A stretch of 61,594 nucleotides of DNA, counting the filler. It is 9 parts of 9 records of this genome, joined end to end, with 100 filler letters (N's around TTAATTAATTAA, not from the genome) between each part and the next. Parts side by side here need not be neighbours in the genome. Positions count along the whole stretch, not along the records: positions 10,485 to 16,191 come from SRR31147125_146167; 8 more parts are not named here. The stretch is one strand, 5' to 3'. The notes below the pieces were generated by a model, which was given only the letters and a program-made list of their open reading frames with translations, was not told where the DNA came from and did not search any database. Numbering within the stretch: position 1 is the first letter of the stretch; the number at the start of each line of letters is the position of its first letter. Of the stretch, positions 9,392-16,191 are shown piece after piece. The position numbers and the translations under genes are program-made.

Positions 9392-10038
9392 CAAACGCCC
9401 CGGAGTTTGAGATTTTTCGCCATGCCTTTGGCCGCCATGCGGTCGCCAAACCACCATGTGGTGGCCGTCACGGTCAGGTAAAAAATAATCCCTATGGCGT
9501 CCGATATGATGTTCGTGGCCATGGTGGCGGTGAGCTGGGTCTGGTTGATTCTGTCCAGGAGCGCCCACGCTTTGATGGTGATCCAGGTGCTTATCCCGAG
9601 CAGATAAAACGTGATCCCGGGCCGGGCAAAGCCTTTGACCAGATCCAGAGTGCCGAAAAATACCGCCAGCAGTACACCGGCCGGAATGGCTACATACCGA
9701 AGCCATCCTTCAACGTTGAAAAGCCGCTCCATGTATGATTCATCAAAGGCCTTGATTTGCCCCGCTTCAAGGCTGTTTGTAAACGCCTCTGTCTCTGCCA
9801 GCTCCACAGCCCCGGAAACCCGGGCGCTGACAACTTCAATCTGTGCTTTGCTTTCTGCGATGGTGGCGTCGGACTCGGCCTTGACCATAGCCACGTCATG
9901 CTGACGCTGTTTGTCATTGTCCTCCATTTCCAGTGCGGCCAGCTTACGCTTATTGTAGCTGGACCAGATGGTTCCGATAAGACCGGTGATGCCGCCAAGC
10001 ACACCTCCTGTGGCCAGATCACCTAACATTTCAATCAT
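9391..10038 (-). CDS. Multi-TM phage membrane protein, putative holin
   Basis: N-terminal Gly-rich hydrophobic helix, coiled coil, three C-terminal TMs with RPGIT and WWFGDR motifs, basic tail; lysis-module position. Confidence 0.55.
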   Translation of the reverse strand: MIEMLGDLATGGVLGGITGLIGTIWSSYNKRKLAALEMEDNDKQRQHDVAMVKAESDATIAESKAQIEVVSARVSGAVELAETEAFTNSLEAGQIKAFDESYMERLFNVEGWLRYVAIPAGVLLAVFFGTLDLVKGFARPGITFYLLGISTWITIKAWALLDRINQTQLTATMATNIISDAIGIIFYLTVTATTWWFGDRMAAKGMAKNLKLRGV

Positions 10039-10384
10039 GCTGCTTTCCTCCATTGCTCTTTAATGGTTATGCGGGCCTTCCGGCCCCTCATTGCCGTGTT
10101 AAACCGTCTCACCATAGGCCTTGATGCCAGTACAGCCCTTTGGCCGCCAATACGCCCCCATCTTGTCCCCAGGAGGACGCAACCCTGGACATGGGTCTTC
10201 CAACCTTTGGAGACATCGCCTGCGAAATTGCCGGAGTGCATGAGGATCCAAGACCGGCCCTCAACGTCTTTGATGTGAAAGGCCTTCCACCGCCTGGATT
10301 CTCTCCACGCTAAGGGGTAGGTGCCGGGCGGGATACAGGACACGTTTGGCCGGTTATCCCGCCACGGCAGCTCCAGGCAGGGGC
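10035..10384 (-). CDS. DUF5675-family protein (putative L,D-peptidase-type endolysin), 5' truncated
   Basis: LELPWRDN...SCIPPGTY...DVEGRSWILMHSGN...GCVLLG. Confidence 0.75.
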
Positions 10385-10484
10385 NNNNNNNNNNNNNNNN
10401 NNNNNNNNNNNNNNNNNNNNNNNNNNNNTTAATTAATTAANNNNNNNNNNNNNNNNNNNNNNNNNNNNNNNNNNNNNNNNNNNN
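10385..10484. other. Artificial contig linker
   Basis: 100 nt of N around TTAATTAATTAA (stops in all six frames). Confidence 0.99.
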
Positions 10485-10537
10485 TATACTGCAAGTCAGG
10501 AAACCTGCCTTAAATTTGGATAAAACTTCGGTGGGAG
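10485..10537 (+). promoter_or_regulatory. 3' end of a cobalamin (B12) riboswitch, truncated by the contig edge
   Basis: GCAAGTCAGGAAACCTGCC (10491-10509) matches the conserved B12-box (AGYCAGRAGACCTGCC-like) and is followed by an antiterminator-like CGGTGGGAG. Confidence 0.78.
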
Positions 10538-10600
10538 GTTTGATTGCCATTATATTTTTTGTATTGTCTTTTTGACTATGTATAGTATAATTGTAATTCG

Positions 10601-10632
10601 CTCGTACCGATTTTAATGGTAGGAGTTTTTTT
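10601..10632 (+). terminator. Intrinsic terminator in the 5' leader (riboswitch expression platform)
   Basis: CTCGTACC-loop-GGTAGGAG hairpin followed by T7, about 55 nt before the start codon. Confidence 0.75.
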
Positions 10633-10686
10633 ATGCTCAAATTTTCTACTAATTTTAAAAATATAAACATAATGAGGAGAAAGTAA

Positions 10687-12297
10687 ATGAAAAAGATTAT
10701 TGTAGTTTTATTAGCACTTATGATGCTTTTGACTGTTGGCTGTAGTGCAACTTCGGACGTAGCCGAGCAAAGCACACCTCAATCAGTTGAAGAAGAAGCA
10801 ACGGTTGATGCTACTGAGGAAGTAGAGGAGAGCGTTGATCTTGATGCTCAAATCGTTATCGCAGGTCACAGAAATCTAGCACCTGGAGAAAAGGATGCTT
10901 ATTATTGTAACTCCGTACTATTGGTATGGGAGCCACTAATTACTAAAGACGCTTCTTATGCACCTACTGGCAAACTAGTTGATACATACTCAGCAAATGA
11001 AGATTCTACTGTCTGGACTTTTAATCTAAAACAAGGTGTGAAGTTTCACGACGGAGTTGATTTTAATGCTGATGCAGTTATAGCTAACTTTGATCGTATG
11101 AAACTAGGTAAAAAGTCTTCTAATTTTTACTCACTTGATATAGACAAGACTTATCCTGGTTTATCAGAAGTTAATAAAGTTGATGATTATACTGTTGAGC
11201 TTGTTTTTGAAAACTCACTTCCAACATTGGATTACAGCATGACAGATTTTGGAAGCCCAATGTTTAGTCCAAACAACTTTGATGAAGAAGGAAACTTTAA
11301 CGGATTACCAATGGGAACAGGACCTTTCAAATTGACTGAGAATGTTTTGGATGAGTATTGTGTTCTTGAAAGAAATGAAGAGTACTATGGTGAAAAAGCA
11401 AATGCAAAATCAATAAAAGTAAGGGTTATTGCTGACCCTGATACAAGATTTGCTGCTCTTAAAGCAGAAGAAATTATGGGTGTCATTGACCTTGGGGCTA
11501 TCCAACCAATTATGGGTAAGGAACTTATCAAAGATGAAAGATTCTCTGATTCACAAACTCCAAGCACAATTACACATAACTTGATTGTTAATGGTAACAA
11601 AGCACCATTTGATGATGTAAAAATGAGACAAGCTGTTAGCTTGCTTATTGATAGACAATTAATCGTTGATAGCTTTTATGCTGGGGTTGGAGAACCAACA
11701 GTAAACTTTTTGAACCAATGTACACCTTTTATAAAAGATTATGAGGTTAAGCAAGATGTTGAAAAAGCAAAGAGTTTAGCAAAAGAAGTGTTGGGCGATG
11801 AAAAAGCAAGCATAAAGATGATTTTAAGGCAAGGCGAAATTGATAGATATCCTAATAAGGAAGAAGCTGAACTATTACAAGCACAATTGCTTGAAATAGG
11901 ATTGGATGCAGAAATTGTTATTTTAGAAAACTCTGCTTGGTCAGAAGCTATGAAAGCTGGAGACTTTGATATATGTATTAAAGTTCTTGGAATGTCAACA
12001 ACAGAGCCGAATACGCTGTTTAAGAAAGTTATGCTTACAGGTTATAGCTTGAACAAATCTTGGTCTATTGGATATTCTGACGAGTATACTGATTCTTTGA
12101 TTACTGGTGTTGATAGCGAGCTGGATATGGATAAGCGTATTGCTACATATGATGAGCTTCAGCAAATCGGTGTAGATCAATTGCCAATTATTCCACTATT
12201 CTATGATATGACATACATTGCATATAACAATAAAATTGAAAACTATGAAGCTTCATATTACGGAGTAACACTTGATAAAGTAAAATGGGCTGAATAA
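10687..12297 (+). CDS. ABC transporter substrate-binding lipoprotein, SBP family 5 (NikA/OppA-like)
   Basis: Lipobox LTVGC, WTFNLKQGVKFHDG, GTGPFKL, PFDDVKMRQA. Confidence 0.92.
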   Translation: MKKIIVVLLALMMLLTVGCSATSDVAEQSTPQSVEEEATVDATEEVEESVDLDAQIVIAGHRNLAPGEKDAYYCNSVLLVWEPLITKDASYAPTGKLVDTYSANEDSTVWTFNLKQGVKFHDGVDFNADAVIANFDRMKLGKKSSNFYSLDIDKTYPGLSEVNKVDDYTVELVFENSLPTLDYSMTDFGSPMFSPNNFDEEGNFNGLPMGTGPFKLTENVLDEYCVLERNEEYYGEKANAKSIKVRVIADPDTRFAALKAEEIMGVIDLGAIQPIMGKELIKDERFSDSQTPSTITHNLIVNGNKAPFDDVKMRQAVSLLIDRQLIVDSFYAGVGEPTVNFLNQCTPFIKDYEVKQDVEKAKSLAKEVLGDEKASIKMILRQGEIDRYPNKEEAELLQAQLLEIGLDAEIVILENSAWSEAMKAGDFDICIKVLGMSTTEPNTLFKKVMLTGYSLNKSWSIGYSDEYTDSLITGVDSELDMDKRIATYDELQQIGVDQLPIIPLFYDMTYIAYNNKIENYEASYYGVTLDKVKWAE

Positions 12298-13238
12298 TGT
12301 TTGCTTATTTCTTGAAAAGAATTTTACATGTTTTCCCTGTTCTTTTCATGATCACAGTATGTGCTTTTTTCCTGGGAGTAATAACTCCTGGGGATCCAGC
12401 ATATATTGCTCTTACAAGAGACGGTTTGACTGAGCCTACCGAGCAGGAAGTACTAGAAAAAAGACATGAGTTGGGACTGGATCTACCATACCACGAACAA
12501 TACTTTAAATGGATGAAGAAAGCAGTAGTGCTGGATTTTGGAGATAGTATATATACTGGTGAAGATATATCTGAAGAGATTAAAAGACGATTTCCTGTTA
12601 CTATAAAATTGTCTTTAAGTGCAGTGCTTTTAACGACTATATTAGGAATTGCTTTTGGCTGTATTATGACGTTTTATAAAGATAAATTTATAGATGTCGT
12701 GATGCGGTTTTTTGCTACTCTTGTTTCTTCTGTGCCAAGCTTTTGGATGGCGATTATTTTGATAACAGTTTTTGCAGAAACGCTTCATTTGTTGCCAACA
12801 AGCGGTAACGAATCTAATAAATCTTATATATTACCTACAGTGGTTTTATCACTATCAACAATAGGGTTTGTATCAAGGCTGACAAGAGCAAGCTTTATTG
12901 GTGTTCTGTCAAAGGATTATTTAGTATTGGCAAATGCTAAGGGGCTAAAAAGCTTTACAATCGGCTTAATTCATATTTTTAAAAACGGCATAATTCCTAT
13001 TATAACTTTTTTAGGTCTCTATTTCGCATCAATTTTAGGTGGTGCAAGTATTGTAGAAACTATATTTTCATTGCCTGGTATCGGAAGCTATGCGATTGAA
13101 TCGATATACGCAAAAGACTACTATGTTATTCAAGCTTATGTTTTGATAACTGGCAGTACTTATGTTTTTGTAACCATATTGGTTGATATGCTTTGCTTTG
13201 CTATTAATCCTAAGCTTAAGGAAGGTGAGACGATATGA
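12297..13238 (+). CDS. ABC permease (NikB/OppB-like)
   Basis: PGDPA, LGLDLPYHEQY, EAA-loop region ANAKGL, ETIFSLPGIG. Confidence 0.92.
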   Translation: MFAYFLKRILHVFPVLFMITVCAFFLGVITPGDPAYIALTRDGLTEPTEQEVLEKRHELGLDLPYHEQYFKWMKKAVVLDFGDSIYTGEDISEEIKRRFPVTIKLSLSAVLLTTILGIAFGCIMTFYKDKFIDVVMRFFATLVSSVPSFWMAIILITVFAETLHLLPTSGNESNKSYILPTVVLSLSTIGFVSRLTRASFIGVLSKDYLVLANAKGLKSFTIGLIHIFKNGIIPIITFLGLYFASILGGASIVETIFSLPGIGSYAIESIYAKDYYVIQAYVLITGSTYVFVTILVDMLCFAINPKLKEGETI

Positions 13239-14044
13239 ATATAAAAATACCGCTTACAATTCTTGCTCTGATACTTTTGTTCAGTATATTTGCCCCGCTA
13301 ATTGCCCCATATGATCCTTTAGAAATTGATATGACAAGTAGGCTAGAAGAACCAAGTTTTGAGCATATGCTAGGAACTGACTCGCTTGGTCGCGATACAC
13401 TTAGCAGAGTTTTACATGGTGGGAGGCAGTCCATAATTCTAGCTTTTATTGCTACTAACCTTTCTATGATTATAGGTGTGATTGTGGGCTTTCTTGCAGG
13501 GTATTATGGAGGAAAAACAGACAGCGTTATTACAAGCGTCACCAATATGTTTATGGGTCTTCCTGATATAAGTATTATGATTGCAGTTGTAGGGATTATG
13601 GGACCTGCTGTTAAAAGTCTTTTGGTCGCAATTATCATAAACTCGTGGACTTCATTTTCCAGATTGGTTCGGATTGAAACTATGCATGTGAAAAAGGAAT
13701 ATTTTGTCGATGGCCTAAAAAACATTGGTGCTAAGGATTTTTATATATTTTATTCGCATATTTTACCCAATCTTTCGGACACGTTGATTATTGTTTTTGT
13801 ATCGAGAATAGGCAGTATTATTTTAAGTGTAGCTGCTTTAAGCTATTTGGGTTTAGGGTTAAGTCCGCCGTATCCTGATTGGGCAATTATGATTAGCGAT
13901 GCTAGAACGTATTTTAGAAGCAACCCAATGCTTGTACTTGCACCTGGTATATGTATTGTTGTATTTGTGTGGTGTGTTCATAGTATTGGCGATGCAATTA
14001 GAGATAAATTGGATGTAAGAGGTGATATCGATGGCGACATCTAA
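13235..14044 (+). CDS. ABC permease (NikC/OppC-like)
   Basis: HMLGTDSLGRD, HILPN, LSYLGLG..PP.PDW. Confidence 0.92.
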   Translation: MNIKIPLTILALILLFSIFAPLIAPYDPLEIDMTSRLEEPSFEHMLGTDSLGRDTLSRVLHGGRQSIILAFIATNLSMIIGVIVGFLAGYYGGKTDSVITSVTNMFMGLPDISIMIAVVGIMGPAVKSLLVAIIINSWTSFSRLVRIETMHVKKEYFVDGLKNIGAKDFYIFYSHILPNLSDTLIIVFVSRIGSIILSVAALSYLGLGLSPPYPDWAIMISDARTYFRSNPMLVLAPGICIVVFVWCVHSIGDAIRDKLDVRGDIDGDI

Positions 14045-14965
14045 TATTGAGATACAAGATCTAAATATAACGTTTAACACAAAATTTGGTGATGTTAGGG
14101 CGGTTAAAAATGCTAGTATTGCATTTGAGAGCAACAGAGCAACAGGGATAATAGGTGAAAGCGGAAGTGGGAAGTCGCTTTTGGCGATGTCTATTTTAAA
14201 GCTTTTACCGCCAGAGGCAGTATATCTGGGGCTTGTATTTATAATGAAAAAAACTTATTTAAATTGGGTAAAAAGGATATACGAAATATTCGTGGTAAAG
14301 AGATAGCTTTTGTTCCTCAAAACCCGATAAACGCTATGAATCCTGTGCTTACTATTGGTAGACAGCTTATAGAGCACACAGTTATGTATCTTGGAATATC
14401 TAAAAGAGAAGCAAGAAACTTGTGTGAAGAATATATAACTGCTTTTGGTCTTGAAAATCCTCATAAAATTATGAAGTCTTACTCGTTTCAGCTAAGCGGA
14501 GGAATGAATCAGGTTGTTCTGTTTATTATGGGTATTATTTGCAAACCATCATTTATTATTGCGGATGAACCAACAAAGGGTTTAGACAGTAAGATTCGTA
14601 AAAATGTGTATGATAATCTATTGCGCATAAAACAAAGCTATGTGAAAAGTATGGTTATTATATCTCATGATTTATACTTTGCTAATAAAATATGTGATGT
14701 GCTTATCGTTATGTATCGTGGTGAGATTGTAGAGATTGGGAAAAGCTATGATATTATAAATAACCCAAGGCATCCATATACAAAAAAACTAGTCAAGTCT
14801 ACTGTGAAAAATGGCATGATACCGATAAAAAAGATCGATGAAAAAACATGCGAAGAAGGATGTAGCTTTTATAGCTATTGTTTGCTAAGGACAGAAAAAT
14901 GTATAAAAGATATTAAGCTAAACAAAATTGATGAAGCTAGAGTGAGGTGTGCAATTTATGATTAA
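14031..14965 (+). CDS. ABC ATPase (NikD/OppD-like), split by a frameshift near 14220
   Basis: Walker A GESGSGKS in the first ORF; LSGGMNQ, ADEPT and HPYT in ORF 14264-14965. Confidence 0.88.
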
Positions 14966-15680
14966 AGTAGAAAACATCTCAATGAATTTTGGTAAAAAAC
15001 AAGTGCTAAAAGATATAAATTTTGAAATTAAAAAAGGTACAAAGTTTGCTATAGTTGGAGACAGCGGATGTGGGAAGTCTACACTTGCAAGGATTATAAC
15101 GAATTTAGTCCACCCCACTGATGGGAAAATCATCTTGCAAGGCAAAGAGGTAAATTCACTAAGTCGGCTTGAAAAAGCTAAGCACATACAGATGGTATTT
15201 CAACATCCCATCAGTAGCTTTGATCCAAAGAAAAAACTGAAAGCACAGCTAGAGGAAGTCATTAAAATTAACAGTTTATCGGTTGATATAGCAAAATATC
15301 TTGAAAATTTTGGTCTTAGTGAGAATCTTCTAGATCGCTATACATTTCAGATAAGTGGTGGTGAAGCGCAGAGACTTTCTATAATACGAAGTATTATACT
15401 TAGCCCAGAAGTCTTGATATTGGACGAGCCAACATCTATGCTTGATGTTTCAACTCAAGCCGAAGTATTCCACTATCTAGATAAATATCAGCAAAGAAGC
15501 CGAGCAACATTAATATTAATTTCTCATGATATCGAATTAGTCAGCAGGTTTTGTGACGATATCGTTATTATTAATGATGGGGAAATAATTGAGATGGATA
15601 CAGTGCAAAATGTTTTACATTCGCCAAAGTGCGAATATACTAGAACGCTTATAGAGAATTTTAATTTTTTTTATGAGTAG
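14958..15680 (+). CDS. ABC ATPase (NikE/OppF-like)
   Basis: GDSGCGKST, ISGGEAQR, ILDEPTS, ISHD. Confidence 0.92.
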   Translation: MIKVENISMNFGKKQVLKDINFEIKKGTKFAIVGDSGCGKSTLARIITNLVHPTDGKIILQGKEVNSLSRLEKAKHIQMVFQHPISSFDPKKKLKAQLEEVIKINSLSVDIAKYLENFGLSENLLDRYTFQISGGEAQRLSIIRSIILSPEVLILDEPTSMLDVSTQAEVFHYLDKYQQRSRATLILISHDIELVSRFCDDIVIINDGEIIEMDTVQNVLHSPKCEYTRTLIENFNFFYE

Positions 15681-15688
15681 GAGATATA

Positions 15689-16191
15689 ATGAATTATAGC
15701 TTATATATTAGTCAATTAAAAGATAAAACAGATAAAATGTGGCTCGATACGATTATCAGTTCGAATGAAAAATCATACAAACGCGCTTTTAGCGATGAGG
15801 TAGAAACGGATTTTTGGAAAGAACATAGCAAAGTCTACGATAAACTCCCATCGCTATTCACTTATGCTCCGCAAGTTTTTGACGATATCGTTGAAATAAT
15901 CGGAATTAATAAAAACATAATTGAGCTTGGAGCGGGTACAGGTCAGTTTACTATTCCTATGTCTAAAGTGCAAAAATCTGTCATAGCAGTTGATTTTTCG
16001 AAAGATATGCTGAATAAACTTGAGGCGAAGGCAAAGGAAATAGATAACATAAAGACCATTAACTGCAAGATTGAAGAAATGGACGGAATAAATGCTGATG
16101 TGATTTTTGGTGTTAACTGTATTTATCGGATTCTGGATATGAAGTCATGTATTAATAATCTTAGAAATATGGTATCGCAAAAGATACTTTT
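15689..16191 (+). CDS. Class I SAM-dependent methyltransferase, 3' truncated
   Basis: IIELGAGTGQFT motif I, AVDFSKDML motif II; starts 8 nt after the ABC operon. Confidence 0.85.

Follow-up and report, generated by a model that had tools for sequence, protein, structure and literature searches.

A Nik/Opp-type ABC importer behind a cobalamin riboswitch remnant, its probable role in cobalt supply, and an accessory methyltransferase gene

The operon described here lies in a 61,594-nucleotide stretch of DNA (the window), which consists of nine contigs joined by N44-TTAATTAATTAA-N44 spacers. It occupies a single contig of 5,707 bp at positions 10485–16191, and position 10485 is the true contig start. 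The contig carries the 3′ remnant of a cobalamin riboswitch, followed by genes for a five-component ATP-binding cassette (ABC) importer of the Nik/Opp1-Cnt type and the beginning of a gene for a class I methyltransferase dependent on S-adenosylmethionine (SAM). We consider it probable, with moderate confidence, that this is a riboswitch-controlled importer of cobalt, either as the ion or bound to a small chelator, for de novo B12 synthesis. The importer would supply cobalt, as ion or on a small organic chelator, to that pathway, and the methyltransferase would be an accessory gene behind the last ATPase gene, from an unnamed family often found beside chelate-type importers.

The evidence for B12 control begins with the leader. 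The original prediction, made from the sequence alone, placed a B12 box at the contig start, and this is borne out: the 19-mer GCAAGTCAGGAAACCTGCC begins 6 nt from the true contig start, is the sole match in the window at up to two mismatches (0.01 expected in shuffles), and aligns to the conserved AGCCAGGAGACCUGCC stretch of the RF00174 model. The Infernal search that had been proposed as a check gave a 5′-truncated RF00174 match of 42 positions at 10485–10526 (18.5 bits, E 0.0058), and cobalamin was the best match among 4227 Rfam families for the leader starting at the contig's first base. Because some three quarters of the aptamer is missing from the contig, the score stays below the gathering threshold of 31.5 bits. 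The truncated match emerged only when the searched stretch began at the contig start; searching 9900–10800 returned no cobalamin match, and Rfam at gathering score returned no match at all in the whole window. From the end of the aptamer to the ATG of the binding-protein gene there are 160 nt, on the same strand.

Within this interval is a terminator-like hairpin with a predicted energy of −10.5 kcal/mol and a T-run at 10626–10632, which together are likely to form the expression platform. A simple terminator scan missed the hairpin because its loop exceeds 8 nt and its stem contains a mismatch. When the whole leader is folded, the stretch from CCUGCC (10504–10509) on pairs with the hairpin loop and 3′ arm; reading the sequence directly, GGUAGG (10618–10623) is complementary to CCUGCC, and we infer that this pairing could serve as a mutually exclusive antiterminator. 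Under this scheme, plentiful corrinoid would let the aptamer fold and the hairpin at 10601–10625 form, so that transcription would stop ahead of the binding-protein gene; with corrinoid scarce, the B12-box strand would instead pair with the 3′ arm of the hairpin and the operon would be transcribed.

Relatives of the operon show the same arrangement with the aptamer complete. Among 7999 candidates scored, 1944 relatives of the binding protein were found at E ≤ 1e-20, the best 80–81% identical, with named matches in Vallitalea, Clostridium, Fusibacter, Sporanaerobium, Desulfosporosinus, Desulfitobacterium, and Paenibacillus. When one genome per species was scanned with a profile, 594 relatives emerged. 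The 80 best loci were retained; we call thirteen of them (L001–L013, 37–50% identity in the binding protein) close, and the remaining loci are about 24–36% identical. The five-gene order is kept in 11 of the 13 close loci (L001–L005, L007–L012); of the other two, L006 is cut by a contig end and L013, from a Veillonellaceae metagenome-assembled genome (MAG), has two tandem binding-protein genes ahead of the permeases and ATPases. We found a full aptamer upstream on the same strand in 12 of the 13 close loci by Rfam (Cobalamin in 11, AdoCbl in L007), while none of 12 distant loci with 25–36% identity (L014, L015, L016, L022, L017, L021, L024, L025, L027, L029, L033, L039) had a cobalamin riboswitch (Fisher p = 2.5e-6). 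Of the 12 riboswitch-bearing relatives, 10 have a hairpin and T-run separating the aptamer from the first gene; the two without them are the actinobacterial loci L007 and L010. The predicted B12 control of the operon thus finds support in its close homologs, where the proposed search for riboswitches upstream of homologous binding proteins was positive, and because close and distant loci divide in this way we take riboswitch control, as judged by comparative genomics, to be a property of this binding-protein subfamily. Two features of individual relatives are recorded here in their own right. In L007 (Varibaculum timonense), an integrase-core (rve) gene of opposite orientation, probably an insertion sequence, breaks up the D-type ATPase gene (L007:13281-14378). 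In L011, from a Eubacteriales MAG, the operon is followed immediately by two nitrogenase-component-1-like genes (Oxidored_nitro, 523 and 395 aa; L011:12187-14939).

Three lines of evidence bear on the cargo. The first is the corrin-synthesis marker CbiC, which is present in all 13 genomes with close loci and in 38 of 200 genomes sampled evenly from the class of one of them (Fisher p = 2.3e-9), a comparison in which the 13 genomes span several phyla and the 200 include incomplete genomes. This supports the earlier proposal that the importer is tied to B12 synthesis. The second concerns CbiN, the cobalt-specific part of CbiMNQO. It was found in eight of these 13 genomes and not in the other five, several of which are incomplete MAGs; some close-locus genomes may therefore be without the CbiMNQO cobalt importer, and as many as five B12 makers may have the Nik-type system as their dedicated route for cobalt. 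The third comes from the two diderm relatives. L006 has a gene for a TonB-dependent receptor between the riboswitch and the binding-protein gene, and L013 has two such receptors ahead of its two binding-protein genes (L013:2866-10452). Against the siderophore-receptor model TIGR01783 (cut-off 223.5 bits) the three receptors score 285, 250, and 184, so that two of them pass; none of the matches listed for the three was to a BtuB-named model. Together these lines make cobalt or a cobalt chelate the most likely cargo, and they favor it over a corrinoid or a lower ligand. The original list of candidates (cobalt, a cobalt chelate, a corrinoid, or a lower-ligand precursor) is narrowed accordingly in emphasis: its first two entries gain from the CbiC pattern and the siderophore-type receptors, while the last two gain no support from those receptors.

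Several observations weigh against reading the operon as a riboswitch-controlled cobalt importer. As to its control, the contig holds 42 of the 189 aptamer positions, with a score under the Rfam threshold, and the overall leader fold is no better than that of shuffles (z = −0.93). A promoter-like TTGTCT-16-TATAAT (10 of 12) at 10564–10591 lies between the aptamer remnant and the hairpin; promoter-like matches are frequent in this AT-rich contig (31 found, 24.6 expected). The 13 close loci are the highest-ranked of 594 and no exhaustive sample, and L013 is without a cobalamin riboswitch by either Rfam or our own model, R1, which recovered four of four known positives outside its training. As to the cargo, the presence of CbiN in eight of the 13 relatives means that the importer would often be redundant with CbiMNQO. 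No component of the operon attains an NCBIfam equivalog cut-off, and the solved structures are distant (best E 1.8e-31), and those that bind peptides, heme, nickel, or opines are all about equally so, so that the cargo cannot be read from homology. The corrin-synthesis evidence comes from the genomes of relatives, and the GC content of the contig differs from the rest of the window. Finally, a literature search, with most subscription journals outside its reach, turned up no experiment on transport or binding by any member.

The same evidence bears on other accounts of the operon. One is salvage, as by BtuFCD: the cargo would be a corrinoid or corrinoid precursor (cobinamide, cobyric acid, or a complete cobamide), and the methyltransferase would act on it. 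B12 riboswitches do govern corrinoid importers too (Sun 2013, PMC3766115), and relatives of the methyltransferase sit in the riboswitch-controlled BtuFCD-type operons L092 and L145 and, in L131, after CbiMQO and adjoining FecCD. We nevertheless judge corrinoid salvage unlikely: all 13 host genomes of the close loci carry the marker for making the corrin ring, the outer-membrane receptors of the diderm relatives match a siderophore-receptor model with no BtuB-named model listed, the permeases score highest with nickel and nickel/cobalt models, and no corrinoid binder is named among the listed solved SBP_bac_5 relatives.

Still less probable is a role as a "B12-independent alternative", in which the operon would import peptides (such as those containing methionine) or some other nutrient by which a B12-dependent reaction is spared. 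Such a role would agree with the cobalamin riboswitches that govern isozymes replacing B12-dependent enzymes (Sun 2013, PMC3766115) and with a PDB search in which the binding protein was about equally similar to DppA, HbpA, and NikA. It does not predict the co-occurrence with CbiC (13 of 13 against 38 of 200), siderophore-type TonB receptors in diderm relatives are at odds with peptide uptake, and the permeases are nearest to nickel/cobalt models. An ordinary nickel or peptide importer, its B12 box a chance match or the tail of another transcript's riboswitch, might be argued from the sub-threshold RF00174 match and the promoter-like hexamers downstream of the aptamer remnant, yet this is very improbable given a 19-mer expected 0.01 times per window, cobalamin as the leading family match for the leader, and the presence of a full riboswitch in the corresponding position in 12 of 13 homologous operons, as against none of the 12 distant ones.

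A cobalt importer in this position is also what published work on similar systems would lead one to expect, and the original description of the operon as an uncharacterised importer was overstated in its novelty. With reference to Rodionov 2006, Zhang 2009 took members of the NikABCDE family behind a B12 riboswitch to be specific for cobalt and counted two such systems in Clostridia, those of Clostridium tetani and Desulfitobacterium hafniense. A "promiscuous S. ovata nikA riboswitch", from Sporomusa ovata, responds to corrinoids in reporter assays in a B. subtilis system (Kennedy 2022, PMC9600662), and cobalt transporters are listed as a class of cobalamin-riboswitch targets by Sun 2013 (PMC3766115) and likewise named as such in a review (Osman 2021, PMC7689651). 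The combination of a B12 riboswitch and a Nik-type importer is thus already predicted in print. Our contig shares with the predicted cobalt importers of Clostridia that a Nik-type importer of five components follows immediately on a cobalamin riboswitch, in Bacillota, and the layout is the same in relatives at 37–50% identity in the binding protein, including the Desulfitobacterium protein P0105 (49%). The likeness to the published loci is one of layout. The available portions of Zhang 2009 and Kennedy 2022 do not mention a trailing methyltransferase.

The features of the contig are collected in the table below. The gene list of the original prediction (an SBP-5 lipoprotein, two permeases, two ATPases, and a methyltransferase 8 nt further on) agrees with the Pfam and NCBIfam assignments and with the coordinates.

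Table 1. Features of the operon contig, in window coordinates.
Feature	Positions	Strand	Basis or remark
3′ end of cobalamin riboswitch aptamer	10485..10526	+	5′-truncated RF00174 match, model positions 148–189 of 189
B12 box, 19-mer GCAAGTCAGGAAACCTGCC	10491..10509	+	exact match
Terminator-like hairpin, then T7	10601..10632	+	arms 10601–10608/10618–10625, 9-nt loop, one G-G mismatch
Shine-Dalgarno GAGGAG	10674..10679	+	read from sequence; 7 nt before ATG
Substrate-binding lipoprotein, SBP_bac_5, 536 aa	10687..12297	+	PF00496, 248 bits
Permease, NikB/Opp1B/Opp2B-like, 313 aa	12297..13238	+	PF00528 and PF19300
Permease, NikC/Opp1C-like, 269 aa	13235..14044	+	PF00528 and OppC_N
ATPase, OppD/NikD/CntD-like, ABC_tran and oligo_HPY tail	about 14037..14965	+	split by 1-base frameshift
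ATPase, OppF/NikE-like, 243 aa	14949..15680	+	PF00005, 115 bits
Class I SAM-dependent methyltransferase, first 167 codons	15689..16191	+	Methyltransf_25, 40.9 bits (cut-off 27)

Neighboring genes of the operon overlap or lie 8 nt apart. The lipoprotein cysteine of the binding protein, Cys19, is invariant in 20 homologs. With SBP_bac_5, two BPD_transp_1 domains, two ABC_tran domains, and oligo_HPY on the first ATPase, the importer has the composition of the peptide/nickel/opine ABC type, and its scores stay below the equivalog level throughout. The top NCBIfam models of the binding protein are NikA, Opp5A, and CntA, all far under cut-off (CntA 122.7 against 800). The first permease scores 304.9 bits with Opp2B (cut-off 350) and 297.7 with Opp1B (cut-off 380), and the second 266.6 with Opp1C (cut-off 350). 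NikD and NikE models give 161–180 bits against cut-offs of 319–333, and for the OppF-like ATPase the NikD, NikE, and CntF models give 173–180 bits, again under their cut-offs.

Two characterized systems come closest in composition. NikABCDE of Escherichia coli, which imports nickel as Ni-(L-His)2, has the same domain set and gene order, and its NikA, NikB, and NikC models rank with the best named ones for the contig's products; the scores are far below the equivalog cut-offs, at 160.9 against a cut-off of 393 for NikA, 271 against 447 for NikB, and 262 against 358 for NikC. Opp1/CntABCDF of Staphylococcus aureus carries out staphylopine-dependent import of cobalt, nickel, and zinc, and cntKLM, for opine synthesis, defines that system. 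The contig operon resembles it in the Opp1B and Opp1C scores given above, in further matches to the CntA, CntC, CntD, and CntF models, and in the idea of a metal-chelate cargo; it differs in that its scores are under the cut-offs and in that no cntKLM occurs on the contig or in annotated neighbors. The importers CbiMNQO (ECF-type) and BtuFCD (FecCD-type) share with it B12-riboswitch control and a probable place in the pathway, and relatives of the methyltransferase occur in such operons (L131, L092, and L145), but the architecture is unrelated, with no CbiM, CbiN, CbiQ, FecCD, or Peripla_BP_2 among the contig's seven products. Regulation also sets the E. coli system apart, being NikR-repressed (Zhang 2009) where the contig operon would be under a B12 riboswitch instead.

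Two points about the assembly affect how the contig is read. The D-type ATPase is read in two frames, and tblastn with the Clostridioides difficile ortholog puts the shift near 14210–14222. In public run X1, which contains 95% of the sampled words of the stretch and is possibly its source sample, a contig at a depth of about 6 has an extra G behind 14218, and one base added there leaves the frame open for 309 codons. For both reasons the frameshift is most likely an assembly error, not a sign of a pseudogene. Other ends are extended in run X1 as well: one of its contigs continues 38 nt beyond the upstream end of the operon contig and another 391 nt beyond the downstream end, while run X2 gave no match to the stretch. 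Separately, a 33-nt stretch at 15285–15317 of the window also matches a 17-kb contig of the same run at 650x depth; it is probably a short stretch in common with another organism, and it causes a depth spike. The second point is origin: the GC content of the contig is 34.7% and that of the other eight 50.6–58.2%, and because of this difference the contig may come from another organism than the rest of the bin, that is, it may be mis-binned.

We then consider the methyltransferase as a partner of the operon. Its reading frame, which starts 8 nt past the stop of the OppF-like ATPase, is interrupted by the contig end. It has four homologs at 57–69% identity (P0121–P0124). Two of these are on contigs equal in length to the contigs of the 80%- and 66%-identical binding proteins (P0121 with P0001, P0124 with P0003), so that the two genes may be linked in the closest relatives. 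Among the 13 close loci, a methyltransferase of this type (46% identical) follows the last ATPase in one, L008 of C. difficile, and in L001 (Sporanaerobium) a distant relative, 25–30% identical, lies between the riboswitch and the binding-protein gene. The proposed test of whether riboswitch and methyltransferase co-occur thus shows a sporadic pairing, with the close type in 1 of 13 operons and a distant relative upstream in one more. Used as a single query against 400 genomes, the contig methyltransferase returned at E ≤ 1e-15 only C. difficile's own copy, and a scan of metagenomes gave one close locus, L086 (49% identical), which has neither a riboswitch nor, within 10 kb, any ABC genes. On these comparisons the methyltransferase looks to be an occasional passenger of the Nik-type operon and no constant partner.

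The identity of the enzyme was approached through sequence families and fold. A structure model of a full-length relative, 60% identical, has a pLDDT of 95, and its best fold matches are BioC, trans-aconitate methyltransferase, juvenile-hormone acid methyltransferase, and ChlM, with TM scores of 0.45–0.55. These small-molecule class I enzymes resemble it in fold, and the GxGxG SAM motif is conserved; they differ in having 10–17% identity to it, and a W...FW motif and a C-terminal domain belong to the contig's family. Assignment as CpaM, BioC, or CbiT was rejected on NCBIfam scores of 38.3 against 180, 33.9 against 185, and 21.3 against 78 bits, respectively, and full-length relatives reached no named family cut-off, including those of UbiE/UbiG and ChlM. 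BzaC carries a PF00891 domain, and the methyltransferase gave no PF00891 match. The ESM Atlas returned generic class I methyltransferase clusters only, sequence and fold searches of the PDB gave generic matches (TM about 0.5), and our literature search found no paper on a pairing of such a methyltransferase with an importer. Fusions with LysR and tandem methyltransferase fusions were considered as clues to the substrate and proved uninformative.

The enzyme belongs to an unnamed family of about 280 aa whose members align end to end, with an N-terminal W...FW motif, a GxGxG SAM site whose G81, G83, and G85 vary little or not at all, and a C-terminal domain some 100 aa long. A search of 1.84 billion proteins with its profile recovers 473 cluster representatives at E ≤ 1e-30, and in the class there are 33 matches at E ≤ 1e-25, in 28 of 400 genomes. 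Two of the matches (L140, G104:C3:160408-161202; L141, G318:C1:1227222-1228016) have one in-frame TAA each and are otherwise full-length. To place the family, we surveyed up to three open reading frames on either side of 32 of the 33 members. An ABC importer is nearby in 18 of the 32, a count given without a matched rate for arbitrary genes: the importer is of the FecCD/Peripla_BP_2 type in 13 (one also with CbiMQO) and of the SBP_bac_5/Opp type in 5. Thirteen members have no importer nearby, and one lies at a contig end, its neighborhood not visible. An FmdE-like zinc-finger protein adjoins in 10 and a CsoR/RcnR-family repressor in 3. The same 32 loci were scanned for riboswitches by Rfam or model R1, and a cobalamin riboswitch heads the operon in three (L008, L131, L145); outside this sample, one heads L092, a BtuFCD-type operon with a related methyltransferase.

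Judged by these neighbor counts, importers in 18 of 32 loci against riboswitches in 3, the family appears to be tied to chelate-type importers in general and not to B12 control in particular. Because it often adjoins such importers, the methyltransferase may be linked to the cargo. We tentatively suggest, as a doubtful proposal, that the family processes the cargo during uptake of metals or corrinoids, a step so far undescribed. The reaction could be methyl esterification of an imported carboxylate chelator, which would free cobalt or nickel in the cell, or it could be methylation of an imported corrinoid precursor.

Several individual loci of the family deserve mention on their own account. 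The repressor genes (PF02583) of L135, L136, and L137 adjoin clusters of methyltransferase and FecCD-type importer genes, and the clusters of L135 and L137 also contain an FmdE-like gene. In L139 (L139:7032-9819), the methyltransferase, FmdE, and FecCD-type importer genes adjoin genes for a corrinoid protein with B12-binding domains and a URO-D-family protein. Cobalamin-riboswitch-like elements of 73–74 bits by model R1 occur at L151:10110-10298 and L152:9979-10167, about 2.2–2.4 kb downstream of the methyltransferase and after a gene of the metallo-beta-lactamase fold; these would control genes further on.

The label that routine annotation would give this operon, "peptide/nickel ABC transporter", would hide that it is under B12 control and that it likely serves to supply cobalt, and mislabelling of this kind affects predictions of which members of anaerobic communities make B12. 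The class has been predicted since 2006, yet our search turned up no published test of what it carries; assaying binding or uptake would fill a long-standing gap. That a single methyltransferase family recurs beside several unrelated types of importer gives a small lead on the fate of imported metal chelates, and this family is the sole part of the finding that might lead somewhere new.

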